DNA of 45,132 bases, taken from contig CALVKH010000001.1 of the NCBI GenBank assembly GCA_944332575.1, positions 1-45,132 of the forward strand, written 5' to 3'. The stretch comes from an uncultured Bacilli bacterium. GTDB taxonomy: Bacteria > Bacillota_I > Bacilli_A > RF39 > UBA660. The position numbers and the translations under genes were made by a program. The notes beneath the pieces were generated by a model. That model saw only the letters and a program-made list of their open reading frames with translations, was not told the DNA's origin and searched no databases. This document shows positions 14,513-35,516 of this stretch, one piece after another (within the stretch, counting starts at the first letter, position 1; each line of letters starts with the position of its first letter).

Positions 14513-15205
14513 ATGACTAAAAAAGTTTTGTTACAATTGTTATTTGTTTTCTTTTGCTTTTTTATAGTAGATAATGTATCAGCAGCTTGTACTACTAGTG
14601 AGTTAAATACTTTAAAACAATTAGCATACAATATTAATTTTAGTTATGAATTACATGATGACACATATAATGAAGATCATCGTTATTATTTTGATGTTTT
14701 AGCAACTAATGTTAGTGAAGATTTTTATATAAGAGTATCTAATGGTCTTTATTTTAGTTATGATAATAGTGATAATGGTAATTTATTAATACCACAATTG
14801 ACTGAAGGTAGAGCATATTATTTTGAAATTTATACTTCAAGTAAAACTAATTGTGCTGATACGAAATTAGTAACAAAGACGATAGAATTACCTTATTATA
14901 ATGATTATTCTCAAAGAGAAGAGTGCGTTGGTATTGAGGACTTTGATTTATGTCAAAGATACTATGGAGGATATATCAAATCAGAAGAGTATTTTTTAGA
15001 GCAAATCGAAAAATACAAAGATAGTTTGAATCATGTCGAAGATCCGGAAGAAAATCCAGATGAAACAATAATTGATCAATTTATTGAAATATATACTAGT
15101 AACTTAATAATTTCAATTCCAGTTACTATTGTATTCATAGGTATCATTGTGTTTATAGTAGTAAAGATTATTTTAAATAAAAGAAAAGTAAAAATTAAAA
15201 TATAG
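14513..15205 (+). CDS. Type I membrane protein of unknown function (first gene of the Tad-like operon)
   Basis: Signal peptide 'VDNVSA/AC', an ectodomain of about 170 aa with 4 Cys, an acidic linker, and a C-terminal TM plus 'NKRKVKIKI'. Confidence 0.6.
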   Translation: MTKKVLLQLLFVFFCFFIVDNVSAACTTSELNTLKQLAYNINFSYELHDDTYNEDHRYYFDVLATNVSEDFYIRVSNGLYFSYDNSDNGNLLIPQLTEGRAYYFEIYTSSKTNCADTKLVTKTIELPYYNDYSQREECVGIEDFDLCQRYYGGYIKSEEYFLEQIEKYKDSLNHVEDPEENPDETIIDQFIEIYTSNLIISIPVTIVFIGIIVFIVVKIILNKRKVKIKI

Positions 15206-15215
15206 AGGTGATAAA

Positions 15216-17957
15216 ATGCTAAAATTTAAAAGGAAAAAAAACGTAATTAAAATAATTAGTTTTTTAGTTTTGGTTTTTTTTGCTTCTGTTTTATTAGTAA
15301 ACGCAAATAATGGTAATACTACAGGTGGTTCTGGAGGAAATGAATATTCGGATTGTGACTATGAATATTGTTTTAGCCCATCTAGAAATGGATATGGTAT
15401 AAGATTATCTTTATATGAATATAATGGGACTAATTTAACTTATTATTCTTCGATTGATTTTTGTAGCGGTGGTAGTAGTTGCTTTGATGGAATGAGTGCT
15501 ACTACTACAACAAATAAAGCGGGTAAAGTAGCTTACCAAAATGGAAAATCTTCATTTAATTGGTCTAGTACAGAAACAAAATTAAAGGCTAATACAACTA
15601 TTAAATTTGCTTGTTACAATGATGAAAATTGTAGTTATATCAATGTAGAAAATCAAATAAAAGAATTGTTTAAATTTGATACTCATAGTCTTGATGAAAT
15701 AAGTTCAGCAATAGAAGATATTTTCGGGATAAGGTTATCTGATTTAACGAATACCTATATTACAGTTGAACCTACCGTTTTCTTTTATAGAAAAAGTGAT
15801 AGATCTTACTTTTATGGAACAGCATACGAATTGATAAGATCTGGTGTTGAATTTCCTGGAATGCGCAATGTTATTAGACTTGATACGCCACTTTCCATAA
15901 TGGCATCTAGCATTGCTGCTGGTCAAGTAGATGATTATAATTTTGTATCTTATGATGATAGTGGATTAGTGCAAATAGTTCCTGGAGATTTTAACAAGAC
16001 TCAAACTAATGTAACAAATTCGATGTTAAATACTAAGTATGGACTAGGTATTAATGTCTTTTGGGTTGGGTCTCCTTCTATTGTTCCAACTCCTTCTGGA
16101 ACTTGTCAAAGTACATGTGCTGGCAGAACTGGCGATGATTTGTTAGGGTGTGCAGAAAATTTTTGCCAAGCCAATAGCACTGATTCTGCAAGTAAGGGGT
16201 CTTGTATAGCTTCTTGTGGGTATAATATACCTTCATTTAGCAGTTGTGGTAGTAGCACATCTATAAATGGACAAGATACTGAGTGTGATGCGTCTACAAC
16301 TGCTTCCATTAGTAGTTGTACGGTAGCTAATACTAATACGTATTATAAGACAACTTGTACAGAATCTAGTACAATACAATACGGAAATAGTTTGCCTACT
16401 ACTTTAAGACCAGGTACTGGATTTAGTTATACGCCGATTTTAAGTGGTAGTAAAACTTGTGAAATGATTTTTGAAGCGGATAAATGGAAGTTTGATTATG
16501 CATCTGCTTATACAACTGCAGAAAGAACAAGACTTTTAGGAATTCTTCAAAATTTTCAAAAAATTGATTCAACATCGATTTGGTATAAAGATTTGAATAA
16601 TAATTATAAATATGATTCTAGTAATGCTGATATAACAATAGAAGTTAATGATAGTAAAAATGGAGATAAATCTACTACTAAGAAATTGGAATCTGACAAA
16701 ACTATTAATTTATTAGAAGATGAAATTGAAGTTAGTTCTGGTGGAACAGTTATTGTTCCGCTGTTTGCAAACGGAAATAGAACTAATCAAACTGTATTTA
16801 GAATCATAAGAACTAATTCTTCTAATAAGACTTCATATAAATTGCCCGGTGTCTGTATGCGCACAAGGGATGGGACCTTATATGATGTAGATAGTAATGG
16901 TAATTGTGAATCAAGTAATGATGGACCATATTACGATTATTTTACTGAATTAAGATTAGAAGAAGGTTTTTATGATACTGAGACTATAGTTAATAAAGGT
17001 AGTAGTAATTTAGATGTATCTAATACATGTAATTATAATATTGATAATGGTAATGAACCTGTTTCGTGTTCTATTATTAAAAATGGTGATAGATATGAAT
17101 TAAGAATTGAAAATAAAAATAATTCTAAAATAACATATGGATTATCAGATAGTGGATACAGATTAAATGGTATTACAGTATATAACAGCACTTCTCAAAA
17201 TTTTAAATTGTATGGAGCGATTGCTGTTAATGATAATATTGTAGCTACATGTAATTATGAAGACGAAGTACCGCCACTTCCTCCTGATGATGAGGACAAT
17301 ACGTGTACTGCTCTTTTTAAAGCTGCAGAATATGATAAAATCAAAGATTATTGTGAGACTAATTGGTTAAGTGATACAGCAAATTATTCTAGTGCTAAAG
17401 ATTGTTTTAACTCTTGTTCTTATGGTAACAATACATGTAAGAATAACCCTGATTTTGATTCTAGTGATGAAGCAGCGGTAGAGAGATATTGTGAAGTAAG
17501 TTATTTACAGGATGGTTATAAGAATGAGGCAAGTTGTATAAACGATTGTTTAGATTTATCTAAACCAGACGACGGAGAACTTTGCTTAGGAGTAGCTTGT
17601 GACTATTTGTATCGTCCTATATCATTAATTGATCCTTTCCCAAATAATAGACGTCCTGGCTATAACTGGTATGGAAAAGAAATTTATATCACTGATGATT
17701 TATTAAACCCAGTTTTAAATCCTAGTACACCGGCAGAGTATGTAATAGAACTGTCTCCAGATAGAATAGATACGATAAGAAGTCAAACGCTTAGATATAA
17801 TGCGACACATGAAGGCGGAAATGCATATATTGATTATGTTTACGAAAATGATAATAACCGCGATGGAAAATATGTAAGTAAATTTATTCATGCTAACGAT
17901 ATTGGCGAAGGTGGATTTTATTCTTTCTTTACCTTGATCGAAGGAAAAGGGGTGTAG
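15216..17957 (+). CDS. Large secreted Cys-rich protein (candidate pilus-associated adhesin)
   Basis: 913 aa with an N-terminal signal/anchor. I counted 32 Cys by hand, all after the signal. No LPXTG motif and no C-terminal anchor. GAGGTG RBS lies 10 nt after the upstream stop. Confidence 0.65.
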   Translation: MLKFKRKKNVIKIISFLVLVFFASVLLVNANNGNTTGGSGGNEYSDCDYEYCFSPSRNGYGIRLSLYEYNGTNLTYYSSIDFCSGGSSCFDGMSATTTTNKAGKVAYQNGKSSFNWSSTETKLKANTTIKFACYNDENCSYINVENQIKELFKFDTHSLDEISSAIEDIFGIRLSDLTNTYITVEPTVFFYRKSDRSYFYGTAYELIRSGVEFPGMRNVIRLDTPLSIMASSIAAGQVDDYNFVSYDDSGLVQIVPGDFNKTQTNVTNSMLNTKYGLGINVFWVGSPSIVPTPSGTCQSTCAGRTGDDLLGCAENFCQANSTDSASKGSCIASCGYNIPSFSSCGSSTSINGQDTECDASTTASISSCTVANTNTYYKTTCTESSTIQYGNSLPTTLRPGTGFSYTPILSGSKTCEMIFEADKWKFDYASAYTTAERTRLLGILQNFQKIDSTSIWYKDLNNNYKYDSSNADITIEVNDSKNGDKSTTKKLESDKTINLLEDEIEVSSGGTVIVPLFANGNRTNQTVFRIIRTNSSNKTSYKLPGVCMRTRDGTLYDVDSNGNCESSNDGPYYDYFTELRLEEGFYDTETIVNKGSSNLDVSNTCNYNIDNGNEPVSCSIIKNGDRYELRIENKNNSKITYGLSDSGYRLNGITVYNSTSQNFKLYGAIAVNDNIVATCNYEDEVPPLPPDDEDNTCTALFKAAEYDKIKDYCETNWLSDTANYSSAKDCFNSCSYGNNTCKNNPDFDSSDEAAVERYCEVSYLQDGYKNEASCINDCLDLSKPDDGELCLGVACDYLYRPISLIDPFPNNRRPGYNWYGKEIYITDDLLNPVLNPSTPAEYVIELSPDRIDTIRSQTLRYNATHEGGNAYIDYVYENDNNRDGKYVSKFIHANDIGEGGFYSFFTLIEGKGV

Positions 17958-17962
17958 TATAA

Positions 17963-18469
17963 ATGCAGTCATCAGTATGGGGATATTTGTTCCTAGTATT
18001 AGGATTAGTTGGAATTGTTTTGATTAATTTGTTTGGAAATATTACTGTAAGTAATGAAGACATGTACTATATATTAAAGGAAGTAACTGAAGCTTCGATG
18101 ATTGATGCTATTGATTACCAAGCTTATCGTGTTGGAGTAGGGTATGATGGAGTAACAGAAGATAGTGATCCTGATTCTATGCATTGCATTTCGGGAATAC
18201 CTGGAACTGTTCGTATAGTAAAAGAAAAATTTGTTGAAAGTTTTGTAAGAAGATTTTCGGAAGCAGTAGAGCAAAATCGTTCTTATCAAATTAGCTTTGA
18301 TGATATAGACGAATGTCCACCTAAAGTAAGTGTAACAGTGACGGCAAGAGAGTCTTATGGATGGTTATCTAAAGTATTTGGATCTGGTGCGGGTGACTAT
18401 AATTATGAAACCGATTCTGCTCAAATAGTTAATACTTTAAGCGCTATATTAGAAGATAAATTTAGATAG
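17963..18469 (+). CDS. Pseudopilin-like protein (short polar leader ending in Gly, then a hydrophobic helix)
   Basis: 'MQSSVWG|YLFLVLGLVGIVLINLF' N-terminus followed by a soluble domain of about 140 aa with 2 Cys. Located in the Tad operon. Confidence 0.4.
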   Translation: MQSSVWGYLFLVLGLVGIVLINLFGNITVSNEDMYYILKEVTEASMIDAIDYQAYRVGVGYDGVTEDSDPDSMHCISGIPGTVRIVKEKFVESFVRRFSEAVEQNRSYQISFDDIDECPPKVSVTVTARESYGWLSKVFGSGAGDYNYETDSAQIVNTLSAILEDKFR

Positions 18470-18485
18470 TAAAGGAGAAAAAGAA

Positions 18486-19400
18486 ATGAATAATTTGGGA
18501 TTAAAATTAAAAATGTTCTTAAAAAATAAGAACACAGTAACTATTTTATGTGCTCTATTAGCAATAGCAGTTTTAATTGTAGCTTATAATTGGCGAGTAA
18601 GAAGTGCTATTGATCCAATAAGAGTTCCTTATGCATTAGATACAATTGATCCAAGAACAGAAATTACTGCAGATATGATTGGCTATAGAGAAATTGCAAG
18701 ATCAGCCGTTACTAGTGATGTAATAAGAAATGCAAATGATTTGATTGGATATTATGTTAATGCAAATACTATAATTCCTAAAGGAAGCATGTTTTATAAT
18801 AGTACAATTGTTAAAAAAGAGGAATTACCAGATGCAGCTTTATATGATATGCCTCTTGATGAAACACTTTACTATTTAGGTGTAAATATTACAACATCAT
18901 ATAGTAATTCAATTTTACCTGGTAATTATATTGATATTTATATGCAAACTATAACTACAGATGTCGATGGTACTACTAAAGTTATGGTTGGTAAATTAGT
19001 GTCTGATGTTTTGGTTCGTGCAGTGAAAACGTCTAATGGATTAAATGTATTTGAGTCAAGTGATGAAGCTAGAATTCCAGCAACAATTATTTTCTCGGTA
19101 AAAGAAGATATTCATCTTTTATTAAGAAAAGCAGCTTCTATTGGAAATTTAAGTGATGAGTATAGAATTGATATCATTCCAGTACCTAATACTACAGGGT
19201 TTGATGGAAATAGCACAGAAGGTGTTGTTACCCAAGTAAGTAGTGAATATTTAAGAAATTTCATTGAAGAAAGAAGTATTTATATACCAGAAGAAGATTT
19301 AGTAGAAAATGTTGATCCTAACGAGGATGATACCACTAATGAAGATAATACCACTGGACAAAATAATGGCAATACAAATGAAGAGGATCAACAATCATGA
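18486..19400 (+). CDS. CpaB/RcpC-like Flp pilus assembly protein (TM + SAF-like domain)
   Basis: N-terminal TM. 'IRVPYALDTIDPRTEITADMIGYREI...LIGYYVNANTIIPKGSMF' fits the SAF-domain pattern of CpaB. Acidic low-complexity tail. Confidence 0.6.
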   Translation: MNNLGLKLKMFLKNKNTVTILCALLAIAVLIVAYNWRVRSAIDPIRVPYALDTIDPRTEITADMIGYREIARSAVTSDVIRNANDLIGYYVNANTIIPKGSMFYNSTIVKKEELPDAALYDMPLDETLYYLGVNITTSYSNSILPGNYIDIYMQTITTDVDGTTKVMVGKLVSDVLVRAVKTSNGLNVFESSDEARIPATIIFSVKEDIHLLLRKAASIGNLSDEYRIDIIPVPNTTGFDGNSTEGVVTQVSSEYLRNFIEERSIYIPEEDLVENVDPNEDDTTNEDNTTGQNNGNTNEEDQQS

Positions 19401-20662
19401 ATGAAGAAATGAATTTAAATGGAATTTCTTACGGTACTAATGGGGTTGCAAATACTTTTACTAATCAGTCTTTAACAGATGAAGTAATAAAAGAAGAGCC
19501 ACCTAAAGTAGAAACTATCAATTCACCTAGAGAAATAGATGATATTAGTTCTAATGATAATTATTTAAGAAGTGATAGTCTATTTTCTAGTATTGACTTT
19601 GGACCTTTAAGAAAGTATTTGTCTGATGATAATATTACTGATATTTCATATAGTAATGGTGGACAAGTATGGTTAAAATCATTAGATAAAGGTGTATATA
19701 GATCGGATGAGACTGAAATAAATGATGCTTTAATTGAAAAAATAGCTTTTCAGTGTTCTAATGTAATGGGAAAAACTTTTAATATGGCTCATCCTTTTCT
19801 AGATAGTGAATCAGCAGAATTGAGAATGAATTTCGTTCATGATTCTATTGCTAGGAATGGAATTGCAGCAGTATTTCGTAAGACTCCTGCTAAAATTAGA
19901 TTAGAGAAAGAAAAATTATTGTCAGATAGATATGTTACATTAAATATTCACGAATTTTTAATGCGTGCAGTAACTGGACATTGTAATATCATTGTAAGTG
20001 GAGAAACTGGTTCTGGTAAAACAGAGCTGGTTAAATATCTAGCTGCACATACTGCTGAAAATGAAAAAATTATAACTATAGAAGATACATTAGAATTACA
20101 CTTAGATAGAATATTTCCACATCGTGATATCGTTGCAATGAAAACAAATAATATTGCATCTTATTCTGATGTATTGGTTACTTGTATGAGACAAAATCCT
20201 AAGTGGATTTTATTATCAGAGGTTCGTAGTGCTGAAGCAGTAACAGCTGTTCGTAACTCCATTTCTTCTGGACATAATATTTTATCCACAATTCATGCGG
20301 ATAAAGCAGAAAGCATTCCTAATCGTATGTATAGTTTGTTGGAAACTAATATCGATGTAGATCAATTTTTAAAAACGATTCATCGTTATGTTCAATTAGG
20401 AATAAATGTTCGTGGACGATATGATCCTAAAGAAAAACGCTTTAGAAGAGAAATTACTGAAGTAACGGAATTTTTCGTCGATGATAATAATGAAGCTGGG
20501 CATAATACTATTTATCGTAAAACCGTAAATGGTGCTGAAACATATAACAAACCTTCTAAATATTTAAAAGAGTATCTTGAAGGGCAAGGGGTTTTTGTTG
20601 ATGACCTGTTTGATAATGTTAATAATCAAACAGTAAAATCAACAGTTGAAGAATTAATTTAA
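19397..20662 (+). CDS. Secretion ATPase of the CpaF/TadA (VirB11-related) family
   Basis: ATGA overlap with the upstream gene. Walker A 'SGETGSGKTE', Asp box 'ITIEDTLEL', 'RQNPKWILLSEVRSAEA', and His box 'LSTIHADKA'. Confidence 0.9.
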   Translation: MNEEMNLNGISYGTNGVANTFTNQSLTDEVIKEEPPKVETINSPREIDDISSNDNYLRSDSLFSSIDFGPLRKYLSDDNITDISYSNGGQVWLKSLDKGVYRSDETEINDALIEKIAFQCSNVMGKTFNMAHPFLDSESAELRMNFVHDSIARNGIAAVFRKTPAKIRLEKEKLLSDRYVTLNIHEFLMRAVTGHCNIIVSGETGSGKTELVKYLAAHTAENEKIITIEDTLELHLDRIFPHRDIVAMKTNNIASYSDVLVTCMRQNPKWILLSEVRSAEAVTAVRNSISSGHNILSTIHADKAESIPNRMYSLLETNIDVDQFLKTIHRYVQLGINVRGRYDPKEKRFRREITEVTEFFVDDNNEAGHNTIYRKTVNGAETYNKPSKYLKEYLEGQGVFVDDLFDNVNNQTVKSTVEELI

Positions 20663-20683: not shown

Positions 20684-21577
20684 ATGGAGATTATTATAAT
20701 TGCAGTTTTATTTATCTTTGTAGTAGTATATCGCGTAAAACAAGGAGAATCTCTATATAAATTTGTTGTTAATCAAACTAGTAATATTTACAATAAATAT
20801 GCACCATATTCATTTAAAGTTGTAAGAGAAAAGGTAAAGGAATTAGGACAAGAATATACACCTAAGCAATATTTGATTCAATTAGTTACTTTTGCTGGGG
20901 GAGGATTTCTAATTTCCTATTTGTATTTTTATAATCCTATTATTTCTATTGTTTATACTTTGTTAGTTGTAGCAATTATTCCGTACCTTACTTATTTAAG
21001 ATGTAAAAGAATATATAGTGAGTTTATTTTTGAACAGATACAAGTATATGTAACTAATACTATTATGGAGTTTCAAACTACTCAAAGCTTTGTTAAAGCA
21101 CTAGAAGGAGTTTATACATCAGGGGTACTACAAGATCCTGTTGCATCTGATGTTAAAATGATGATTGATTTAGCTTATCAAAATGGCGATGTTGATAAAT
21201 CCATTGAATATATGAATTCTAAATATAATTTTTATATGACAAGAAACATGCATCAATTATTTTTGCAGATCACTAAAGAAGGATCAAGAGATACAACCGA
21301 GGTATTAGAAAACATGCTTCAAGATATTGATATGCTTGTTGAAGGTGTATATAGAGATAGAGTTGATAGGCAAACTTTTCACAAACAATTTGTTCAATAT
21401 GGAATAATGCTATATTTGTTAGTAATGTTAGTGCAATATTTATTGGGAGTAGATACCTATCTGCAATTATTAAGTGAACCGTTTGTAAATGTTTGCTTGC
21501 ATATAATCGTGTTATTTAATAGTTATTTTCTTCTATCAGGAGAAAAATATTATAACGAGAATGTAGGTGCTGAATAA
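20684..21577 (+). CDS. TadB-like platform protein (T2SS-F domain)
   Basis: N-terminal TM, a helical cytoplasmic domain and C-terminal TMs. About 300 aa, immediately downstream of the ATPase. Confidence 0.65.
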   Translation: MEIIIIAVLFIFVVVYRVKQGESLYKFVVNQTSNIYNKYAPYSFKVVREKVKELGQEYTPKQYLIQLVTFAGGGFLISYLYFYNPIISIVYTLLVVAIIPYLTYLRCKRIYSEFIFEQIQVYVTNTIMEFQTTQSFVKALEGVYTSGVLQDPVASDVKMMIDLAYQNGDVDKSIEYMNSKYNFYMTRNMHQLFLQITKEGSRDTTEVLENMLQDIDMLVEGVYRDRVDRQTFHKQFVQYGIMLYLLVMLVQYLLGVDTYLQLLSEPFVNVCLHIIVLFNSYFLLSGEKYYNENVGAE

Positions 21578-22359
21578 TGGAAATATTTATAGTTGCTATT
21601 ATCATTCTGTTTGTATTGATTTATACTAGAAGAGTAGATACTAAAACGTTTATAGCTGAAAATGATATATATTTAAAAAGTTTAAAAGAAAAAGATTATG
21701 ATTTCTATGTTAGTGCTAAATATGGGGATAAAGTTGATCCTAATCAATTGTTTATGAAAAGATTGCAACTTACTTTTATTGGAATTTTGTTTGTTACCAT
21801 TCTTTTCATTACCAATATGAGTTTTATCAATTTTATTGCTATCATTTTAGTAGCATTTCTAATATTTAAATCTCAATATATGTCTTTAAAGAAATACTAT
21901 AAAAAATATATGCATGAGATCGATCAAATGCTCCCTTATTATTTAAAAAGCTTAGAGATTTTATGCCAAAACTATACTGTACCAGTAGCTATCTCTAGAT
22001 CGATTGATGATGCTCCGGATATATTTAAACCAGGTCTTAAAGATATGATAGCAAGAATTGATGCTGGAGACTCAACCATTAAACCGTATATGGATTTTGC
22101 TATAAAATATCCAGTTAGAGATTCTATGAGAATGATGAGATTACTTTATAGATTAAGTTTAGGAGCTCAAGAAAATAAATATCAACAATTATTGATGTTT
22201 TCTAAATCTGTATCTAACTTACAAAATAAAGCAAGAGAAGTAAAATATAAAAATAGATTATCTAATATGGAAAGACGTACAATGCTTATGTTAATAGTAA
22301 CAGGTGGTGGAACAATGGTAATTTTACTATTGTCAACTATGTTACTTTTTGGAATATAA
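21577..22359 (+). CDS. TadC-like platform protein (T2SS-F domain)
   Basis: 'LPYYLKSLEILCQNYTVPVAISRSI...LKDMIARIDAGDS...YMDFA' matches the GspF-domain pattern. Flanking TMs. Confidence 0.7.
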   Translation: MEIFIVAIIILFVLIYTRRVDTKTFIAENDIYLKSLKEKDYDFYVSAKYGDKVDPNQLFMKRLQLTFIGILFVTILFITNMSFINFIAIILVAFLIFKSQYMSLKKYYKKYMHEIDQMLPYYLKSLEILCQNYTVPVAISRSIDDAPDIFKPGLKDMIARIDAGDSTIKPYMDFAIKYPVRDSMRMMRLLYRLSLGAQENKYQQLLMFSKSVSNLQNKAREVKYKNRLSNMERRTMLMLIVTGGGTMVILLLSTMLLFGI

Positions 22360-27501: not shown

Positions 27502-27840
27502 GTGGAAAACAATAATAATTATTTAATTCCTGCTAATTCTAATAGAGGAAAATTAATCTTAGGATTCTTTAGAGGAATTGACTTAGCGATATTTGGAACA
27601 GGTGCTGCTATTACTTTGATTTTAATAATTGCTTTTCAAGGAATGATGACAAATTGGTTAGTAGCAATTGGAGTTTTAGCTCCTGTAGCTCTTACAGGAT
27701 TTCTAGTAATTCCAGTTCCTCATCAGCATAATGTATTAGTGTTTTTAACAAATGTCTATAAGTATTTCTTTGTTAATAGACAAAGATATTATTGGAAAGG
27801 TTGGTGTAATAATTATGGCGAAGAAACAAGTAAACAGTAG
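27502..27840 (+). CDS. PrgI/TcpE-like small membrane protein (VirB3 analogue)
   Basis: GTG start with AAGGAGAG RBS. 112 aa with two TMs. 'IPANSNRGKLILGFFRGIDLAIF' is typical of PrgI-family proteins placed just before VirB4. Confidence 0.6.
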   Translation: MENNNNYLIPANSNRGKLILGFFRGIDLAIFGTGAAITLILIIAFQGMMTNWLVAIGVLAPVALTGFLVIPVPHQHNVLVFLTNVYKYFFVNRQRYYWKGWCNNYGEETSKQ

Positions 27841-28369
27841 TAAATATACAGAAGACTGGGTACCAGTACAATCAATTGCAAATGGTATGATTATCTTAGA
27901 TAATCAATTAAAGGTAACAGGTGTAAAGATAGCACCTAGAAATATTTTTATTTTAGATGAGGAGTCACAAGCAAATGTTCTTATGAACCTAAGAAACTTC
28001 TATAACCAAATAGATTTTGAGTTTTGGTTAATCGTTGCTGATAGACCAGTGGATATTTCTGTTTATATGTCTCAATTACAACTTTTGTATAATCAAAATA
28101 ATTCCCCTGCAATTAGAAAATTGATTAGTGAAGATATTCAAAAAGGTAATAGTTTTATGAATAATAATGTAGTTGATACAGAGTATTACATCTTGTTTAA
28201 AGAAAATAATTTAGATATCATTCAAAAAAGAATTAGAATGTTGATTAACTCTTTATCAGCTTGTGGATTGTTATCAAGTCAAACTAGTAATGAGGATTTA
28301 AGAATTATATTAGATAATTTCTTAAATGGTGGTCAAACAACGGAATTTGGAACGGTGGTGGCACTATGA
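27815..28369 (+). CDS. VirB4-like ATPase, N-terminal segment encoded as a separate ORF
   Basis: Start refined to the ATG at 27815. 'TEDWVPVQSIANGMIILDNQLKVTGVKIAPRNIF' matches the N-terminus of Gram-positive VirB4 proteins (Orf16/PrgJ/TcpF type). Ends in an ATGA overlap with the next ORF. Confidence 0.6.
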   Translation: MAKKQVNSSKYTEDWVPVQSIANGMIILDNQLKVTGVKIAPRNIFILDEESQANVLMNLRNFYNQIDFEFWLIVADRPVDISVYMSQLQLLYNQNNSPAIRKLISEDIQKGNSFMNNNVVDTEYYILFKENNLDIIQKRIRMLINSLSACGLLSSQTSNEDLRIILDNFLNGGQTTEFGTVVAL

Positions 28370-30159
28370 GTACAATGAATTTTAAATCACAAATAGCTCC
28401 TAAAGGACTTAGTTTTGGATATAGTGATTTCTTTGTAAGTGATAAATATGCAACTATCCTAACAGTAATATCTTATCCTAAATTTATTGCTCCTGGTTAT
28501 TTGTCTACACTTACTACTATGCCTGGTATTAAAGTAGTTATTAAACATATACCAGTTCCATTTTCAACAATTTCTAAAATGTTGAATAAACAAATTGCTG
28601 AACTAAAAACTAGATACCAAGAAGAAAAAGATCGTACTATTCAAGAGAGAATTAGGCTAGACTATGAGTCTTTAGAGTATTTTGTAACTATGTTAGCAGG
28701 AAGTCAAGCTAGAATCTTTGATTTCCAAATGCATATTATGATTACTGCTGATACGAAAGAAGATTTAGAGTTAAAGAAAACTAATGTTAAAAATTATCTT
28801 GATGCGATGGAGTTAAAAGCAGTAGCGTTACGTTTTGAACAAGAAAAAGTATTAAAATCAATAATACCAATTTTCCCAAAACAAGATATAGAAGATCGTA
28901 TTGGTACACCAATTCCTTCTATTACCATAGCTGCTATGTATCCATTTATATTTGATAGTATTAAAGACCCAGGTTTATCTACTTTACTAGGTGTTGACTT
29001 TTCCGGTGGTGTCATACTATTTAATCAATTTTTGTATAAAATCAAAAAAGAAAATAACAGAAACAATGCTAATTTGATTTTATTAGGTACCTCTGGATCA
29101 GGTAAATCAACCGCAGCTAAATTATTACTTCGTGGGCATATTCGTAATGGTTGTCAAATTGTTGCAATTGACCCTGAAAACGAGCTAGAAGATATGACAA
29201 AAGCTTTTGGTGGAGATACTATTGACCTTGGTAAAGGTGGAGAATATGGTATGATTAATCCACTTCAAATAGTAATTGATGCTGATGAAGATGAGATTAA
29301 ACAAGGATTAGGATATACGGTATTAACTAGAACGCTACAATTCTTAAAAGCATTTATGAAGTATTATGATCCATCTATTGAGGAAGATGTATTAACATTA
29401 TTTAGTGAAGTAGTTCAAGATACTTATCGTCGTTTTGGAATAGATTTTGATAAGGACTTCTATAATTTTACAGCAAAAGATTATCCAACTTTTAGTGATG
29501 TATATGCAACTATTAAAGGTCGTCTTATGGCAATGGCTGATCATACTCATGAAAAAGATATTATGGAACGTCTTGAGTTAAAAATTAGACCATTAACTAA
29601 TGATTTAAAATATTATTTTGATGGACATACAACCATAACTCATGATAGTGATTTTATTACATTTAATATAAAAGAATTAATGAATGCGGAAGCGAATATT
29701 AGAAATGCATTATTCTTCAATATATTAAAATATGCATGGGGACTTTGTTTAAATCGTGATTTGGATACTATATTAATGGTAGATGAGGCACACGTATTAT
29801 TAGGGGATAATAACTCGCTTGGAGCTGATTTCTTAGCACAAGTTCAAAGACGCGCTCGTAAATATAACACAGGTTCCATTATTATTACTCAACAACCAAG
29901 TGATTTTGCAACTCCTAGTGTAATTACTCAAGGTAAAGCAATATTCGATAATGCTTCTTACTATATTATTATGGGATTAAAGAAACAAGCTGCTGAAGAT
30001 TTATCAAAACTTGTTGATTTGAATGATAATGAAAAAGAAAGTATTAAACGTTATTCACAAGGGGAAGCATTATTCGTTTGTGGACATCGTCGTATGAGAA
30101 TAAATATTATTGTAACTCCAGAAGAGTTAGCATCATTTGGTAGTGGAGGAGGACTATAA
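28366..30159 (+). CDS. VirB4-like T4SS ATPase (main body)
   Basis: Walker A 'LGTSGSGKST', Walker B 'ILMVDEAH', 'RRARKYNTGSIIITQQPSD'. 597 aa. Confidence 0.9.
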   Translation: MSTMNFKSQIAPKGLSFGYSDFFVSDKYATILTVISYPKFIAPGYLSTLTTMPGIKVVIKHIPVPFSTISKMLNKQIAELKTRYQEEKDRTIQERIRLDYESLEYFVTMLAGSQARIFDFQMHIMITADTKEDLELKKTNVKNYLDAMELKAVALRFEQEKVLKSIIPIFPKQDIEDRIGTPIPSITIAAMYPFIFDSIKDPGLSTLLGVDFSGGVILFNQFLYKIKKENNRNNANLILLGTSGSGKSTAAKLLLRGHIRNGCQIVAIDPENELEDMTKAFGGDTIDLGKGGEYGMINPLQIVIDADEDEIKQGLGYTVLTRTLQFLKAFMKYYDPSIEEDVLTLFSEVVQDTYRRFGIDFDKDFYNFTAKDYPTFSDVYATIKGRLMAMADHTHEKDIMERLELKIRPLTNDLKYYFDGHTTITHDSDFITFNIKELMNAEANIRNALFFNILKYAWGLCLNRDLDTILMVDEAHVLLGDNNSLGADFLAQVQRRARKYNTGSIIITQQPSDFATPSVITQGKAIFDNASYYIIMGLKKQAAEDLSKLVDLNDNEKESIKRYSQGEALFVCGHRRMRINIIVTPEELASFGSGGGL

Positions 30160-30188: not shown

Positions 30189-32105
30189 ATGGCTGATAAT
30201 TCAAATAACCAAAATAATACTAATATTAATAACAATAATGGTAGATTGAATATGCATGCTAGAGGATCATCACCTTCTTTTGATCCTAGACAAAATCAAT
30301 TTAAAAATAATTCTACATTAGGACAAGCAAATAGAACTGTTTTAAGATATATAGCGATAGGAGCCGCACCGTTGTTAATCATTTTATTGTTTTTTTTAAT
30401 GATCTTGAGTAAGGATACTATTAGTGGTATTGGTAATGGCGATGATATTTATGAAGATCTACGTAAAGAAATAGCTAGTGTTATGACAAGTTATAGCACT
30501 AAAGTAGATATTGATGGAGTTTTGATATTAGCTACTTTAGTTGGGTATAATGATGTAGAAGATATTGATAGTGAAGAAGCTATTTCAAAAAATATGGATT
30601 ATTTAAAAAAACAAGTACCAATATTAGCTGAGTATCAAATTATGACAACAAAACAATGCGATTATCCTTCTAATACCATGCGTGAGATCGCTAGTAATGA
30701 TGGATTATTGTCAGAAGATAATTATAATTGTGTTTCCTATGAGATGGAAGGAGAAAGTTATTCCTTATCTATTGGTTTGGGAGACTTAAATGATAATAAT
30801 AGTGGTAGTACTTATTATTGGAATTTAATTGATGAAGAATTTATATTTAATTTTTATAATGAGTATATGGTAAATCCTAATGAGAATAACGGAGAAAACG
30901 ATGAGAAAATAGATGAAATTATTCAAGAGATTTATTTATATTATGAAAGTTTATTACAAGTAGCAGATAATGATGAATTGTTTGGTATATATAATGTAGG
31001 AAATAATTATTGGTGGCCAATAGGTAGTGATGAGACAACTATTGAAAATGGTAAAACATTTGCAAGCGGTACTCCAACTCCTACTGTTATTACAGCAACT
31101 TTTGCTGGTGATGATTCTGTACATGAAGGGGATCATGGAGCTTTAGATATTTCTGGTAGTAATGCATTAAATCGTATTAATATTATTGCTTCACGAAGTG
31201 GAACGGTTATTTATCCAACCAGTAATAGTCAAACTAATTTCCCTGATAATGGATATTTGGGTAATAGAGATGGTGGAGGATATGGTAACTATGTAATTAT
31301 TGATCATGGTGATGGTGAATATACTTTGTATGCTCATTTAGCTCAAAATTCTATTACTGTTATGGCTGGTGATACTGTTGAGCAAGGCCAAGTTATTGCT
31401 AAAATGGGACATAGTGGTAATTCAACAGGAGCCCATTTACATTTTGAAATTCGTATAGGTGGTAATTCATCTTTATTTAAAGTTGATCCACAATTATATG
31501 TAGATCCTGATAATCCACGTCCTACATCAGATATTTTTACCGAATGGATAAAAACCATGGAAGGTGGAACTAGTGGACAATATGTGGATGGAGATAACTA
31601 TGTAGTATACGATGGTGGAGATGGTGTATTGACTGTTGGATATGGAATTGTAATTGTCGATTCCAGTGGAAATCAATTATATACCAATATTTATGATACC
31701 CCTGTTACCGTAGGTAGTAGAATACCTATGAAAATAGTAGATAAAATGTTTAACCAATTTATGTCGGGATCTAAGACAGTACTAGCGAATGAAAAAGCCA
31801 ATCGTAATATTACACTTACTAAGAATCAAGATGATGCAATTTTAAGTCTTATGTATAATTGTGGTACAGGATGGGCAGCCCCAGTTTTAGATGCATATGG
31901 AACTGATGGGGATACGAATGCTTTATGGAATGAAATGAGTAAATGCAAAAATGCAACAATTGATGGAGTATTTCAAGAACTTTATGGTTTAAAACTAAGA
32001 CGAGCTGAAGAATATGAATTATTCTTAGAAGGAGATTATAAATACGATCCATTAAGTTATATTTCTGGGGATCCGGTAAAATATTACGATGTTTCTAGTT
32101 GGTAA
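30189..32105 (+). CDS. Bifunctional cell-wall hydrolase: M23 metallo-endopeptidase + GH24-type lysozyme domain (VirB1/CwlT/PrgK analogue)
   Basis: Asn-rich N-tail plus a TM. M23 motifs 'HGALDISG', 'GNYVIIDHGDGEYTLYAHL', 'GHSGNSTGAHLHFEIR'. Lysozyme motifs 'MEGG...VYDGGDGVLTVGYGI', 'QDDAILSLMYNCG', 'LRRAEEYELFLEG'. Confidence 0.85.
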   Translation: MADNSNNQNNTNINNNNGRLNMHARGSSPSFDPRQNQFKNNSTLGQANRTVLRYIAIGAAPLLIILLFFLMILSKDTISGIGNGDDIYEDLRKEIASVMTSYSTKVDIDGVLILATLVGYNDVEDIDSEEAISKNMDYLKKQVPILAEYQIMTTKQCDYPSNTMREIASNDGLLSEDNYNCVSYEMEGESYSLSIGLGDLNDNNSGSTYYWNLIDEEFIFNFYNEYMVNPNENNGENDEKIDEIIQEIYLYYESLLQVADNDELFGIYNVGNNYWWPIGSDETTIENGKTFASGTPTPTVITATFAGDDSVHEGDHGALDISGSNALNRINIIASRSGTVIYPTSNSQTNFPDNGYLGNRDGGGYGNYVIIDHGDGEYTLYAHLAQNSITVMAGDTVEQGQVIAKMGHSGNSTGAHLHFEIRIGGNSSLFKVDPQLYVDPDNPRPTSDIFTEWIKTMEGGTSGQYVDGDNYVVYDGGDGVLTVGYGIVIVDSSGNQLYTNIYDTPVTVGSRIPMKIVDKMFNQFMSGSKTVLANEKANRNITLTKNQDDAILSLMYNCGTGWAAPVLDAYGTDGDTNALWNEMSKCKNATIDGVFQELYGLKLRRAEEYELFLEGDYKYDPLSYISGDPVKYYDVSSW

Positions 32106-32125
32106 GGAATAAAAAGGGTGATTTT

Positions 32126-32632
32126 ATGGATAAAACTTCATTTAGAATTTTTCTTGTGATAATAGTAGTTTCACTGATTATTTTTAGTGGATTGTTTGCT
32201 TTTGCCATGTATGAGAATAAAATTAATGAAGATAAAATAGAAGTAGAATATGTTACTAATGCTAATATCTTTTATACAGTAGAGAGTTGTGTTAATAAAT
32301 ATGTTAGTTTAATTGTAGCGCAAGATAGTATTGCTTTGTATAATGTTACTGACGAACAATATAGAGAAGAACATGGAATAACGATTAATAACGTTTTAGC
32401 TAATAATATAAAATTATCTGGAAATTATTCTTTCAATGCCCAAAAAATGCTTCAAGATAAAAATAGTGAACATACATATTATGTGAAAGGATATTTAATA
32501 GAAGAATCTTTAATGGAAGATGGATTTTCAAATGAAAAAATAGAATATGGATTAATTGTTAAATTGGATGTAGATAATAATATATATTCTATTATACCTA
32601 GTGAAGTGGAGGTATATTTTGATGAAATCTAG
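32126..32632 (+). CDS. Small N-terminally anchored protein (VirB8-like candidate)
   Basis: Start refined to the ATG at 32126 (AAGGGTGA RBS). One TM plus a soluble domain of about 130 aa. The function is inferred from position and architecture only. Confidence 0.4.
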   Translation: MDKTSFRIFLVIIVVSLIIFSGLFAFAMYENKINEDKIEVEYVTNANIFYTVESCVNKYVSLIVAQDSIALYNVTDEQYREEHGITINNVLANNIKLSGNYSFNAQKMLQDKNSEHTYYVKGYLIEESLMEDGFSNEKIEYGLIVKLDVDNNIYSIIPSEVEVYFDEI

Positions 32633-33119
32633 ATTAGTTAAACAAATTATTATATGTTGTTTTATTGTTATTATATGTGGGGTAGTAGTATTTTTGGTAA
32701 GAGGATATTTTCTTGATAGTGACAATAATAAGTTTAATGTGACAAATGAATTAAAAGAAAAATATGAATATAATGAATTTCAAGTTATTAATGTTACTAC
32801 TGAAATGTTAATTCAAAGATATTTTATTGATTTTAAGAGTAAACTTTTAACCTCTCCTAAAGAAGCATATGATTTATTAAGCAGAGAATCAAAAAAAGAA
32901 TTTGATAATTATACATCATTTTTAGAATTTATAAATAATAACATAGAACAAATACGTACATCAACGATAGAAAAGTATACTATTCAAAATTTTGATAGTA
33001 GCCAACGCTATATTGTATTAGACCAATATAATAATAAATATACTTTTACTGCTAAGGCAATTTTAGTGTATGAGGTAACACTAGATTTTAATAATGAAAT
33101 AACTAGTATTTTTGAATAA
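32622..33119 (+). CDS. Small N-terminally anchored protein (VirB8-like candidate)
   Basis: Start refined to the ATG at 32622 (GGAGGT RBS), overlapping the upstream stop. One TM plus a soluble domain of about 130 aa. Confidence 0.4.
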   Translation: MKSRLVKQIIICCFIVIICGVVVFLVRGYFLDSDNNKFNVTNELKEKYEYNEFQVINVTTEMLIQRYFIDFKSKLLTSPKEAYDLLSRESKKEFDNYTSFLEFINNNIEQIRTSTIEKYTIQNFDSSQRYIVLDQYNNKYTFTAKAILVYEVTLDFNNEITSIFE

Positions 33120-33167
33120 AATATTGTAAAATAAATTTAGTAATTTACTGAAAGAGGGAATAATAAT

Positions 33168-35516
33168 ATGAAATTGAAGTTTAGGGCTGAACCACAAGAT
33201 GTATTAATATTTGTAGTTTTTGCTATTTTTCTTTTGTATGTAATTGCTCTTGGGGTAATAAATCTACCAACATTAGCATCAGAAGGAAGATTTGCTGGAT
33301 TAAATCCATTACCAGCTTTTGAACCTGAGAATCTATTTAAGACAATTGTTTTTTACCTTATTGCTTTAGGTGCATTATTTATGAGTGTTTCTTCTTACTT
33401 TTTTGAAAGAGAAGAAGGAGTGGGACTAACTTTAAATAAAAAAGATAAAGGATATAGCAGATGGGCTAAAGAAAAAGAGATGAAAAAAGTATTAAAATGT
33501 GTTCATCCTGCTGATGAAACTAGCCAATATGCTGGTATTCCTCTTATTAGTAAAAACGGAGAACTTTGGGTTGATGATGGTGAGTATCACAACTTAGTAA
33601 TAGGTGCTACTGGTAGTGGTAAAACCGTAAGTACAATTTTACCTACTATTAAGATTCTTGCTAAAAAAGGAGAGTCAATAATTTGTACTGACCCTAAAGG
33701 AGAGTTGTTTGAAAAAACCGGTAGTATGTTAAAAGCCAAAGGATATAATATTATCTTACTTAATTTCCGTAATCCACAAAAAGGTAATGCATGGAATCCA
33801 TTAACACTACCATATCGACTATATAAAAGTGGAAATCAAGATAAAGCAATTGAGTTATTAGATGACTTAGCGCTTAATATTCTATATGAAGAAAATAATG
33901 GTAATGCTGATCCGTTCTGGGAAAAAACTTCTGCGGACTATTTTTCAGGATTAGCACTAGGAATGTTCGAAGATACTACAGAAGATAAAATAAATATTAA
34001 TAGTATTAGTTTAACAACTACAGTTGGTGAAGAGAAATGTGGAGCATCCACTTATGTTAAAGAATATTTTAATTTAAAAGATCCTAACAGTCCTGCTTAT
34101 ATAAATGCTAGCGGAACTATTATGGCTCCTAGCGAAACGAAAGGAAGTATTATTGCTGTATTTAAGCAGAAGATAAAACTATTTTCATCGCGTGAAAATT
34201 TATCAGAAATGCTTTCTTATAGCGACTTTGATATGAATTCGATTGGTAAAGAAAAAACAGCCGTTTTCATAATTATTCAAGATGAAAAGAAAACATATCA
34301 TTCACTTGCTACTATATTCGTAAAACAATGCTATGAGACATTAATTGATGTGGCTCAATCAAATGGTGGTAAATTGCCATGTCGAACTAATTTCTTATTG
34401 GATGAGTTTGCTAATATGCCACCGTTAAAGGATGTAACAACTATGATTACTGCTGCTCGTTCTAGACAGATTAGGTTCACAATGATTATTCAAAATTTTG
34501 CGCAGTTAAAACAAGTGTATGGAGCAGATAATGCTGAGACTATCAAAGGAAACTGTGGTAACTTAATTTATTTAATTTCAACAGAACTTGCTGCACTAGA
34601 GGAAATAAGCAAGTTATGTGGTGAAGTAAAATCTAAGAAAGATGATAAGACTGCATCAACTCCACTTGTAACTGTAAGTGATTTACAACGTATGAAACAA
34701 TTTGATCAAATAGTATTAAGAATGCGTATGCAGCCATTTAAGACATCATTTACTCCAGATTTTAAAATAGATTGGGGTAGAAAGTACGGTCCAATTGAAT
34801 ATCCAGAACGTGAGAAAAAACCAGTTGCGGTATTTGATGTAAGAGAATTTGTTAAAGAAAAAAGACAACAGAAAATTAAAGAAATGATGGCAAATGGTAC
34901 TCCTCCTGCGAATGGTGGAATGATGGCAGGGCCTAATATGAATAGTCCTTATCCTAATATGCCACAAATGCCTAATTTTAGTAATATGAATCAAAATCAA
35001 GCACCTAGAAATAATCCAGGACCAGATATTAATATGGATGAACTTATTAAAAAGATCGATGCTAAGATTGCTGAGATTGAAGAGGAAGAAAAGAAGGCTA
35101 AAGCATCAGAAGTTAATAAACAACCAGTGACTCCTCCAAAGGATAATGTTAATGAGCATATGAGTAACAAAACTAATGTTCAACCTTCAATTATAAGAGA
35201 ACCAATGAAGCAAGAAGTTGATCGCGTAGGAGTTGAAAATAAAGATTTAGAAAATACTAATCCAAGATTGTTTAATAATATTAAGGAACCTTCTAATTCT
35301 ACAGATATTAGTAGGATTATTGAACAAAAAGTAAATAAAGAAATGAGTAATTTTGTACCGAAGATAGAAAAGGAGGAACCAAAGAATTCTACTTTTGTTC
35401 CACCTGTGCAACCTACAAATGAAGCAAAAAAAGAGGAAGAAAAACCAAATACAACAATTACTCTTGACGAAGAAGTGGACGATAATAAATTTTTTGATGA
35501 TTTCTTCGATGATTAA
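33168..35516 (+). CDS. VirD4/TraG-family type IV coupling protein with a long low-complexity C-terminal tail
   Basis: Two N-terminal TMs. Walker A 'VIGATGSGKTVS', Walker B 'FLLDEFANMPPL', 'ARSRQIRFTMIIQNFAQLKQVYG'. About the last 200 aa are P/N/M/Q-rich and then K/E-rich, ending 'FFDDFFDD'. Confidence 0.9.
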   Translation: MKLKFRAEPQDVLIFVVFAIFLLYVIALGVINLPTLASEGRFAGLNPLPAFEPENLFKTIVFYLIALGALFMSVSSYFFEREEGVGLTLNKKDKGYSRWAKEKEMKKVLKCVHPADETSQYAGIPLISKNGELWVDDGEYHNLVIGATGSGKTVSTILPTIKILAKKGESIICTDPKGELFEKTGSMLKAKGYNIILLNFRNPQKGNAWNPLTLPYRLYKSGNQDKAIELLDDLALNILYEENNGNADPFWEKTSADYFSGLALGMFEDTTEDKININSISLTTTVGEEKCGASTYVKEYFNLKDPNSPAYINASGTIMAPSETKGSIIAVFKQKIKLFSSRENLSEMLSYSDFDMNSIGKEKTAVFIIIQDEKKTYHSLATIFVKQCYETLIDVAQSNGGKLPCRTNFLLDEFANMPPLKDVTTMITAARSRQIRFTMIIQNFAQLKQVYGADNAETIKGNCGNLIYLISTELAALEEISKLCGEVKSKKDDKTASTPLVTVSDLQRMKQFDQIVLRMRMQPFKTSFTPDFKIDWGRKYGPIEYPEREKKPVAVFDVREFVKEKRQQKIKEMMANGTPPANGGMMAGPNMNSPYPNMPQMPNFSNMNQNQAPRNNPGPDINMDELIKKIDAKIAEIEEEEKKAKASEVNKQPVTPPKDNVNEHMSNKTNVQPSIIREPMKQEVDRVGVENKDLENTNPRLFNNIKEPSNSTDISRIIEQKVNKEMSNFVPKIEKEEPKNSTFVPPVQPTNEAKKEEEKPNTTITLDEEVDDNKFFDDFFDD

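Follow-up and report, generated by a model that had tools for sequence, protein, structure and literature searches.

In the pLS20 family of Gram-positive conjugative plasmids, the adhesin Tie (gene 34) is followed by gene 36, a 'putative VirB11' (37), genes 38 (268 amino acids, aa) and 39 (243 aa), genes 40 and 41 (47 aa) and, further on, by VirD4 (48), VirB6 (49) and VirB4 (52) (PMC8557374). The plasmids pAW63 and pXO2 carry the series CDS26 (a surface protein), 23, 22 ('VirB11'), 21 (278 aa) and 20 (250 aa) (PMC1196294). In the pLS20 and pAW63 papers the ATPase is taken as VirB11, and Gram-positive elements are said to be without pili (PMC8557374, PMC1196294), and a 2025 review describes Gram-positive type IV secretion systems (T4SSs) as universally lacking VirB11 (PMC12857230). 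Here we describe a locus of 20 genes, all on the forward strand, from an uncultured member of the Bacilli (GTDB lineage RF39; UBA660), at positions 14513-35516 of a 45,132-nucleotide (nt) stretch of contig CALVKH010000001.1, the whole of which we call the window. In this locus a block of genes resembling the assembly module of Tad pili (t01 to t10) adjoins a set of T4SS genes (v01 to v10). The locus is a lineage trait at a conserved chromosomal site and not an island. We consider it likely that it encodes a cell-envelope machine, vertically inherited and fixed in the chromosome, which characterises a large clade of Bacilli from the gut, all uncultured and belonging at least in part to the order RF39. 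The machine probably arose from a conjugation apparatus with the architecture seen in the Gram-positive plasmids pLS20, pAW63 and pLGUG1, and its T4SS proteins are most similar to those of Mollicute integrative and conjugative elements (ICEs). Relaxase, integrase and replication functions would have been lost from it, or would never have been encoded nearby.

The architecture common to pLS20, pAW63, pXO2, pBT9727 and the Listeria grayi plasmid pLGUG1, and recognisable in the RF39 locus, comprises an adhesin, a transmembrane (TM) protein of about 125 aa, a 'VirB11' ATPase, two membrane proteins of about 245-280 aa and small hydrophobic peptides, and then VirD4, VirB6, a VirB3-like protein, VirB4 and a hydrolase. 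In pLGUG1 the order is a thioester adhesin, a 132-aa protein, the ATPase, membrane proteins of 267 and 262 aa, small peptides, VirD4, a pLS20_p028-type VirB6, a DUF5592 protein and VirB4. Its 'VirB11-like' ATPase is 30% identical to the ATPase of the RF39 locus, t05 (140 bits, E = 9e-42), which makes it closer than the PDB matches, and the nearest plasmid relatives of t05 are ATPases labelled 'T2SS/T4P/T4SS family' from conjugative plasmids of Listeria and Bacillus. A profile of t07 matches the 262-aa protein in hhalign (probability 80%, E = 1.4e-5), while t06 and the 267-aa protein gave no significant match. At the position of t03, the 132-aa protein has a weak DUF5411 match (E = 0.0017), and BLASTP of t03 against it gave nothing significant. 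Just before VirD4, pLGUG1 (our locus L094) also encodes, at 17190-17468 and 19788-20078, an Flp-shaped peptide (…DRLLWTVVTVVVVGAILLIV…) and a VirB2-shaped two-helix hairpin, although pLS20-type operons have been described as being without pilin homologues.

The plasmids differ from the RF39 locus in carrying relaxase, replication and regulatory genes and in being transmissible, whereas the locus is chromosomally fixed. Their adhesin has a thioester domain and the adhesin candidate of the RF39 locus has none, while the latter has extra CpaB-like and t10 genes, a split VirB4, and VirD4 in last place where the plasmids have it first. Since these plasmids carry the same module, the initial annotation overstated its case in treating a pilus-type module beside a Gram-positive T4SS as unprecedented. 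Nor does the pilus module take the place of an adhesin, as had been thought, since a large surface protein lies just upstream of it, as in plasmids of the pLS20, pAW63 and pLGUG1 type.

On the T4SS side, the best NCBIfam matches of the pilin, the polytopic protein and VirB4 are Mbov_0395, MMCAP2_0566 and Mbov_0397, families of Mollicute ICEs such as ICEA of Mycoplasma agalactiae and Mycoplasma bovis. All scores are under the equivalog cutoffs, and the order pilin, polytopic protein, VirB4 is common to both; the backbone resemblance proposed in the initial annotation is therefore supported. Mollicute ICEs differ in being mobile, by means of a DDE transposase, and in having no wall hydrolase, and we know of no Tad-like module in them. 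They also drive relaxase-independent chromosomal transfer (PMC12857230). RF39 bacteria are predicted to be mostly walled (PMC10868615), which fits the presence of a wall hydrolase in the locus.

The locus resembles Tad/Flp (type IVc) systems in having a T2SSE ATPase from the branch that includes CpaF, FlaI and VirB11, two separate candidates for single-domain platform proteins, a putative pilin about 50 aa long and a weak match to CpaB. It differs from them in that it has no prepilin peptidase and no G/xxxxEY motif, that TadZ is unconfirmed and that the Pfam models T2SSF and Flp miss. The R64 thin pilus, which is used for mating, provides a further parallel as a type IV filament encoded alongside VirB4 and type IV coupling protein genes, and the mating pilus of PAPI-1 is another (PMC12857230). 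Both are type IVb pili of diderm bacteria, encoded on mobile elements and unrelated in sequence to the RF39 proteins.

The closest functional analogue is the relaxase-less chromosomal T4SS of Patescibacteria. These bacteria have, lineage-wide, a chromosomal T4SS related to MPF-FATA, with VirB2-like pilins (PF18895) and mostly without a relaxase (PMC12102498), and Southlakia epibionticum requires both the T4SS and a type IV pilus in order to grow on its host bacterium, a requirement that does not depend on ComEC competence (PMC12857230). As in RF39, the T4SS of the Patescibacteria, including the Saccharibacteria, occurs in uncultured organisms with reduced genomes. The Patescibacteria differ in belonging to another phylum, in having pilus and T4SS at separate loci and in that the pilus is type IVa-like and not Tad-like. 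We found no literature linking RF39 with T4SSs, Tad systems or pili.

Distribution, linkage and chromosomal site

More than 7600 relatives of the t05 ATPase are present in the protein collection, the best 120 of which are all at least 67% identical to it. When one genome is counted per GTDB species, a relative occurs in at least 575 species, all of them metagenome-assembled genomes of uncultured gut Bacilli, 'Tenericutes' or 'Mollicutes'; one of the loci, L063, is from Ca. Fimihabitans intestinipullorum, of the order RF39 and family CAG-822 (PMC8035907). We collected 80 loci with up to 10 kb on either side of the ATPase gene, 57 of which have enough downstream sequence to be informative. The T4SS pilin gene directly follows the Tad-like block in 53 of the 57 (93%): in 31, the block is followed by pilin, VirB6, VirB3 and the split VirB4, and in 22 the contig or flank ends after the pilin and before VirB4. 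Two loci have no recognisable pilin, and in two others (L062 and L076) an inserted McrBC-like cassette, encoding an AAA-type (McrB-like) protein and partners (13300-17072 in L062), interrupts the block downstream of the second platform gene; unrelated housekeeping genes come next, with no Flp, t10, pilin or VirB4 gene within 8 kb. Across loci, identity to the window rises and falls together in the two blocks, both for TadB (t06) and the N-terminal VirB4 piece (VirB4N; Spearman rho = 0.87, n = 31) and for t10 and the pilin (rho = 0.83, n = 52). The two blocks are thus joined and co-inherited, as first proposed, and the independent assortment against which that proposal was to be checked is the opposite of what we found.

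The chromosomal surroundings are shared between species. A homologue of the thioredoxin-like lipoprotein lies directly upstream of the first gene of the locus in many of them. In L096, the closest relative of the window, the upstream order is amidase, CTP synthase, diacylglycerol kinase (DAGK), thioredoxin and locus, in L097 it is DAGK, thioredoxin and locus, and the window has this order with an extra insert (8900-13926) between DAGK and thioredoxin, which are direct neighbours in L096 and L097. On the other side, VirD4 of L090 is directly followed by a TraF/PedC-like thioredoxin, a bPH_3 protein, a protein of about 400 aa and a polytopic protein of about 535 aa; L092 and the window have the same genes after a three-gene BcrAD/HGD/DUF2229 cassette, and most of them are also found in L088.

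The pattern of constraint separates motors from exposed parts. Between the window and L096, identity is 97% for the VirB4 ATPase piece (VirB4C), 91% for VirB4N, 87% for TadB, 86% for TadC (t07) and 80% for the t05 ATPase, compared with 87% for CTP synthase and 83% for DAGK in the flanks and with 49% for t01, 51% for t02, 55% for v02 and 54% for VirB6. Between the window and L092, VirB4C is 88% and VirD4 76% identical, and BcrAD and HGD 70%. VirB4C has a median identity of 87% over the 16 loci that include it in full, against 37-38% for t02, v02 and VirB6. Taken together, the surface parts are no more than 30-55% identical. Given that a recent island would be uniformly similar, that VirB4 is more conserved than CTP synthase, and that the surface genes are far more diverged than it, both decay and recent horizontal spread are excluded.

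Among essentially all window open reading frames (ORFs) of at least 100 aa, Pfam scans detected no domain of a relaxase, recombinase, transposase, Rep or Par protein, in agreement with the initial annotation. No relaxase or integrase Pfam match was seen in a further 7.8 kb to the right of the window, nor in the flanks read in five other contigs, which cover about 5 kb before the locus and as much as 10 kb after it. A direct-repeat search, one of the checks first suggested, returned short imperfect AT-rich matches and no att-like repeats bracketing the block.

Composition of the locus

The genes of the locus and its immediate neighbours are listed in the table. The unbroken run of genes on one strand from 14.5 to 35.5 kb stands as first reported, as does the gap of about 90 nt between the two blocks: the last ORF of the Tad-like block ends at 24005 and the pilin-like ORF begins at 24094, 89 nt further on. 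Homologues suggest that three of the listed ORF starts (22382, 22992 and 27752) are probably too far upstream, and they place the starts at 22430 for the Flp-like gene (MKEATG), at 23025 for t10 (MNVLI) and, probably, at 27815 for VirB4N (MAKKQ).

Table. Genes of the RF39 locus and its neighbours, in window coordinates, with the basis of each assignment
Feature	Coordinates	Strand	Basis
Thioredoxin-like lipoprotein	13969..14430	-	Pfam Thioredoxin 40.6 bits; conserved upstream neighbour of locus
t01 Cys-rich surface protein, 230 aa, signal peptide and C-terminal anchor	14513..15205	+	No family match
t02 secreted Cys-rich protein, 913 aa, putative adhesin	15216..17957	+	No family match
t03 DUF5411 protein, N-terminal TM helix, minor-pilin-like candidate	17963..18469	+	PF17424 129 bits
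t04 CpaB/RcpC-like protein	18486..19400	+	Sub-cutoff RcpC and TIGR03177
t05 T2SSE-family hexameric ATPase (CpaF/VirB11/FlaI-like)	19397..20662	+	T2SSE 94.7 bits
t06 polytopic membrane protein, TadB-like platform candidate	20684..21577	+	Size, topology, position
t07 probable platform protein, T2SSF-like cytoplasmic domain (TadC-like)	21577..22359	+	AlphaFold2 model and Foldseek
t08 Flp-like putative small pilin, ~53 aa	22430..22591 (ORF listed from 22382)	+	Size, shape, conserved N-terminus
t09 129 aa, N-terminal hydrophobic helix, TadE-like minor pilin candidate	22624..23013	+	Sequence shape only
t10 ~326 aa (337 aa as listed from 22992); TadZ/CpaE-like as a guess only	23025..24005	+	
v01 VirB2/TrbC-like T4SS pilin, two-helix hairpin	24094..24429	+	PF18895 just sub-cutoff
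v02 anchored Cys-rich extracellular protein, 368 aa	24518..25624	+	Weak DUF6273 match only
v03 VirB6/TrbL-like polytopic channel protein	25803..27479	+	TrbL_4 above cutoff
v04 VirB3-like small two-TM protein	27502..27840	+	TcpE E = 0.0038
v05 VirB4 N-terminal piece	27752..28369 (start probably 27815)	+	VirB4_plasma E = 1.4e-15
v06 VirB4 ATPase piece	28366..30159	+	P-loop_TraG, AAA_10 above cutoffs
v07 VirB1-type cell-wall hydrolase, M23 endopeptidase and GH24 lysozyme	30189..32105	+	Pfam
v08, v09 two small N-terminally anchored proteins, VirB8-like candidates	32099..33119	+	Size, anchor, position
v10 VirD4 coupling protein, long low-complexity C-terminal tail	33168..35516	+	T4SS-DNA_transf, NCBIfam CD1115
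Downstream neighbours: TraF/PedC-like thioredoxin, bPH_3 protein, 406-aa anchored protein, LysM protein, 533-aa polytopic protein	38920..43352	+	

From its sequences and one structural model, the upstream block appears to be a type-IV-filament-type assembly module that resembles Tad, with several of the defining features of Tad missing. The original label of 'Tad-type' holds only in part, in that no prepilin peptidase lies in the window, the Flp motif is non-canonical and TadZ is unconfirmed. Among PDB sequences, the best score of t05 was with CpaF (70.6 bits), ahead of FlaI (61) and VirB11 (60), values that do not discriminate, and a profile search swaps the CpaF/VirB11 ranking seen with the single sequence; every NCBIfam equivalog is far under its cutoff. 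We do not believe that t05 is VirB11 proper, a T4SS traffic ATPase that works without platform proteins, given that TIGR02788 scores 111 bits against a cutoff of 250 and that two platform-like proteins and an Flp-like peptide follow the ATPase. The preceding protein, t04, is below cutoff both with Pfam RcpC (E = 2e-4, 21.7 bits against 28.8) and with the NCBIfam cpaB model TIGR03177 (E = 3.6e-7, 29.7 bits against 71).

Structural evidence for a filament platform comes from t07. A Pfam scan gave no direct match to PF00482 (T2SSF), but an exhaustive search of cluster representatives yielded 514 relatives, including fused proteins of about 500 aa, and one such remote homologue (P0343) scores 24.3 bits with T2SSF in its other half, against a cutoff of 25.2. 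An AlphaFold2 model of t07, built from an alignment with 39 relatives, has a pLDDT of 91.6. Its top Foldseek match is SpoIIIAB (6bs9; probability 1.0, TM-score 0.57-0.62 on the target), which we take to be a recognised GspF-like domain, followed by the EpsF/GspF cytoplasmic domain (EpsF, 2vmb; probability 0.95, TM-score 0.62). A confident model with platform matches of the GspF/SpoIIIAB type, albeit at weak E-values, supports the type-IV-filament reading. We also considered a SpoIIIA-like sporulation channel and rejected it: t05 matches SpoIIIAA at only E = 0.003, there are no further SpoIIIA genes, and the block is tied to a T4SS.

The remaining genes of the block are assigned with less help from profiles. 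t06 has no match in Pfam or among PDB sequences; it corresponds to pLS20 gene 38 and pAW63 CDS21 in size, topology and position, and its median identity across loci is 71%. Comparison of t06 with t07 in hhalign found no similarity, so paralogy of the two is not supported. Alignment profiles of t06, t07 and t10 had no match among PDB sequences even at E <= 10. The N-terminus of t08 (MKEATGELNMTLV) and its hydrophobic helix are nearly invariant in about 40 species; the Flp Pfam model does not match, and the G/xxxxEY motif is absent, the conserved N-terminus being MKEATG-ELNMTLV without EY. Pfam scans found no prepilin peptidase (Peptidase_A24) in the window. The positions of t01 (25-55% identity across loci) and t09, which has no family match, are conserved. 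t02 is fast-evolving (27-60% identity). Its place in the gene order is taken in pLS20 and pLGUG1 by the thioester adhesin Tie and in pAW63 by the surface protein CDS26, and from this position we regard it as a putative adhesin. No ParA/CpaE, Pfam or PDB match was obtained for t10, whether as a protein, as a profile or through 24 homologues, for which the Pfam scan returned noise; its single-sequence AlphaFold2 model was useless (pLDDT 31.6), and any TadZ/CpaE-like identity is a guess. The two best sigma-70-like sites of the block, each matching at 11 of 12 positions, lie before the Flp-like gene (22364-22392) and before the VirB2-like pilin gene (24037-24065) and hint that each of the two putative filament subunits has a strong promoter of its own, in a scan that overall was not above chance (144 sites against 135 expected).

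Checked by profile against a Gram-positive (MPF-FATA-like) T4SS, the assignments of the initial annotation held for VirD4, VirB4, VirB6 and the hydrolase, all above Pfam cutoffs, and are weaker for VirB2 and VirB3; the gene order was right, and what had been overlooked was the 368-aa Cys-rich anchored protein between pilin and VirB6. VirD4, for which there are more than 7500 homologues, matches T4SS-DNA_transf (PF02534) with 207.9 bits, TraG-D_C and TrwB_AAD_bind as well, and the NCBIfam CD1115 family with 301 bits against a cutoff of 250. The VirB4 ATPase piece matches P-loop_TraG (41.6 bits) and AAA_10 (41.4 bits), the Mycoplasma-ICE model VirB4_plasma below its cutoff (353 bits against 590, E = 2.5e-105) and the clostridial CD1110 family with 171 bits, and at 68-97% identity it is the most conserved gene of the locus. 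The N-terminal piece (56-91% identity) covers positions 91-276 of the VirB4_plasma model, and in other contigs matches the TraC-like PF26593. As the same two ORFs with the same 4-nt overlap were independently called in six other contigs, that is, in every contig with called genes, the split is not a sequencing error but the normal state of the gene in this clade.

The VirB6-like protein scores 27.9 bits with TrbL_4 (cutoff 27) and also matches the MMCAP2_0566 family (E = 1.3e-7) and pLS20_p028 (E = 0.0055). The pilin v01 is just under the cutoff of PF18895 (T4SS_pilin; 25.5 bits against 26.6), with the Mbov_0395 family at E = 0.004. v04, whose TcpE match is weak, overlaps the VirB4 start and is 40-85% identical across species, and v02 is conserved in position at 31-57% identity. 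The hydrolase matches Peptidase_M23 (79 bits) and Phage_lysozyme (37 bits), both above cutoff. For v08 and v09 there was no family match in Pfam or NCBIfam, and tblastn at E <= 1e-3 found no similarity in divergent contigs; in other species, one or two small genes of 160-245 aa are called at this position, and size, anchor and position make the two proteins VirB8-like candidates.

Several features of this block vary between species. The hydrolase at the VirB1 position (30189-32105 in the window, 6663-8912 in L088, 7083-9254 in L090, 6265-9234 in L092) retains its N-terminal part and swaps catalytic domains, among them M23+GH24, M23 only, SpoIID+CHAP and SpoIID. L096, with an ATPase 81% identical to that of the window, has a second, weakly matching PF18895 T4SS_pilin paralogue (16375-16758) between v02 and VirB6; L088 and L090 have a gene of 127-133 aa there, and the window has none. 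Just past VirD4, a 62-aa ORF (35653-35841) is a homologue of the C-terminal domain of v02, with 50-56% identity to the v02 homologues of L090 and L097, and its position is kept in strains L003 and L005-L007. The metagenome contigs L003 and L007, which include downstream flank, stop less than ~100 nt from the VirD4 stop codon (about 35550 in the window), which may reflect strain variation in the low-complexity 3' end of virD4.

Outside the locus, Pfam identifies glycosyltransferases, CTP synthase, DAGK, a UvrD-type helicase, thioredoxins, the BcrAD/HGD cassette and an Fe-hydrogenase, in flanks that the initial annotation described as of housekeeping type. The tRNA-Cys (44987-45060) lies 9.5 kb past the end of VirD4, again as described, and is the only element that an Rfam scan of the window returned; no riboswitch was found. 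The GC content is about 27% for the window and 0.28-0.37 inside the block, slightly higher than in the flanks. The insert at 8900-13926, found in none of the other 80 loci, encodes a GT1 and a GT2 glycosyltransferase, a 789-aa UvrD-type helicase with a long insertion resembling a PD-(D/E)xK nuclease, and a 212-aa anchored surface protein. The helicase (10840-13209) was considered as a DNA-processing partner of the locus and dismissed, being absent from the same position in all other loci. The BcrAD/HGD-D/DUF2229 cassette (35864-38793, reverse strand), of activator-like/2-hydroxyacyl-CoA-dehydratase type, is present in L092 and not in L088 or L090. Exact-protein look-ups of two flank proteins gave no match.

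Competing explanations

The initial annotation offered three hypotheses: a domesticated or decayed ICE, an ICE with its DNA-processing module outside the window, and a chromosomal machine, the last of which fits our results best. That the locus is an ordinary ICE or integrated plasmid carrying a Tad operon, with relaxase, integrase and att sites beyond the window, we regard as very improbable. VirD4 is of the conjugative CD1115 type, all homologous systems of known function are conjugative, and the block has the slightly raised GC content already mentioned. Against these points, species whose ATPases are 71-83% identical to that of the window have the same neighbours on both sides, the flanks that we read contain no recombinase or relaxase match, and no repeats bracket the block; such conserved, syntenic neighbours make a DNA-processing module just outside the window very unlikely. 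In addition, the closest plasmid VirB4 is only 30% identical, and the surface genes have diverged far more than the flanking CTP synthase. A decaying ICE remnant with no present function is scarcely credible: the absence of relaxase and integrase from the locus and the division of VirB4 into two ORFs could be taken as signs of erosion, but all of the genes are intact, each contig examined shows the split with the 4-nt overlap, and the motors are more constrained than the neighbouring housekeeping genes, VirB4C having a median identity of 87% and reaching 97% where CTP synthase has 87%.

The two halves could instead be independent systems lying side by side, a Tad-like adhesion pilus and a separate T4SS. 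Each pilin gene has its own strong promoter-like site, L062 and L076 keep ATPase and platform genes with no adjacent T4SS, and the type IV pilus and T4SS of Saccharibacteria are separate loci (PMC12857230). We nevertheless hold this to be improbable, given the 93% adjacency among informative loci, the co-divergence of the blocks and the presence of a homologous ATPase/platform module inside the single conjugation operon of pLS20-family plasmids, pAW63 and pLGUG1, between adhesin and VirD4, which is hard to explain unless the module serves transfer. Quite improbable, too, is a DNA-uptake machine in which a Tad pilus captures DNA, as in Micrococcus luteus, and the T4SS imports it, as ComB does in Helicobacter pylori. 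Pilus-dependent DNA uptake does have precedents. A passage in PMC12306168, citing Nayfach 2019, describes RF39 genomes as reduced, with many auxotrophies. Yet the locus encodes a VirD4 coupling protein, of the type that recruits cytoplasmic substrates for export, and no ComEC- or ComEA-type gene, and the essential role of the Saccharibacteria pilus and T4SS is independent of ComEC-mediated competence (PMC12857230). The role of VirD4 as an exporter's component also sets the locus apart from ComB, since the H. pylori system, to our knowledge, has no VirD4 coupling protein.

Several points weigh against a fixed and joint machine of RF39, which we nonetheless prefer. The Foldseek E-values for t07 are weak (0.06-0.9) despite probabilities of 0.95-1.0; t06, t08, t09 and t10 have no family match, prepilin peptidase was not found in the window and the Flp motif is atypical. 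The loci L062 and L076, with no adjacent T4SS, indicate that physical linkage of the two blocks is not obligatory, and the assignment of the clade to RF39 leans on one named locus. The relaxase negative covers the window and the flanks read, and a relaxase elsewhere in these genomes is possible. Lastly, what the sequences show is the composition of the locus, its linkage, synteny and co-divergence and the selection acting on it; formation of a pilus, joint action of the two halves and the kind of cargo are deduced from these.

A proposed mechanism and its meaning

Based on these observations, we propose the following model for the machine. The T2SSE ATPase, two GspF-like platform proteins and CpaB-like and minor-pilin-like proteins would polymerise a short Flp-like pilus, which would present, or cooperate with, the fast-evolving Cys-rich surface proteins; the disulfides of the latter may be made by the thioredoxin-like lipoproteins found at both ends of the locus. 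The filament module would make and tighten contact with another cell, and the VirB1-type hydrolase would open the wall. The VirB2-like pilin, VirB6, VirB3, the split VirB4 and the two VirB8-sized proteins would then form a channel, into which VirD4 would feed a cytoplasmic macromolecule, DNA or protein. Candidate substrates are chromosomal DNA, transferred independently of a relaxase as in mycoplasmas, and proteins, or the channel may be a nutrient conduit such as has been speculated for Saccharibacteria; we regard DNA and non-DNA substrates as about equally likely.

A bolder reading, possible though doubtful, is that RF39 bacteria, which are abundant, are partner-dependent, epibiotic or syntrophic, and that the locus is an essential cell-to-cell conduit, the convergent or shared counterpart of the type IV pilus and T4SS of Saccharibacteria; the 'VirB11' module of pLS20-type plasmids would then be a cryptic Gram-positive conjugative type-IV-filament machine. 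The architecture itself is already known from conjugative plasmids. The novelty lies in its domestication as a chromosomal system throughout a lineage and, perhaps, in the interpretation of the plasmid-type module as a filament machine. The modelled fold of t07 suggests that the 'VirB11' of pLS20, pAW63/pXO2 and the Listeria plasmids may belong to a pilus-type assembly module, and thereby bears on the textbook view that Gram-positive T4SSs have no VirB11 and make no pili (PMC12857230, PMC8557374). A filament role of the module is testable in pLS20.

Bacteria of the order RF39, none of them cultured, are widespread in the guts of humans and animals. Given that nearly every sampled species has kept the machine at the same site and that its motors are more conserved than CTP synthase, it is likely to be central to the life of these bacteria. 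It therefore offers a handle for their cultivation, by seeking the partner cell, and for their genetics. It would also be the second case after the Patescibacteria, and in another phylum, in which a conjugation apparatus has become a core system of the chromosome.

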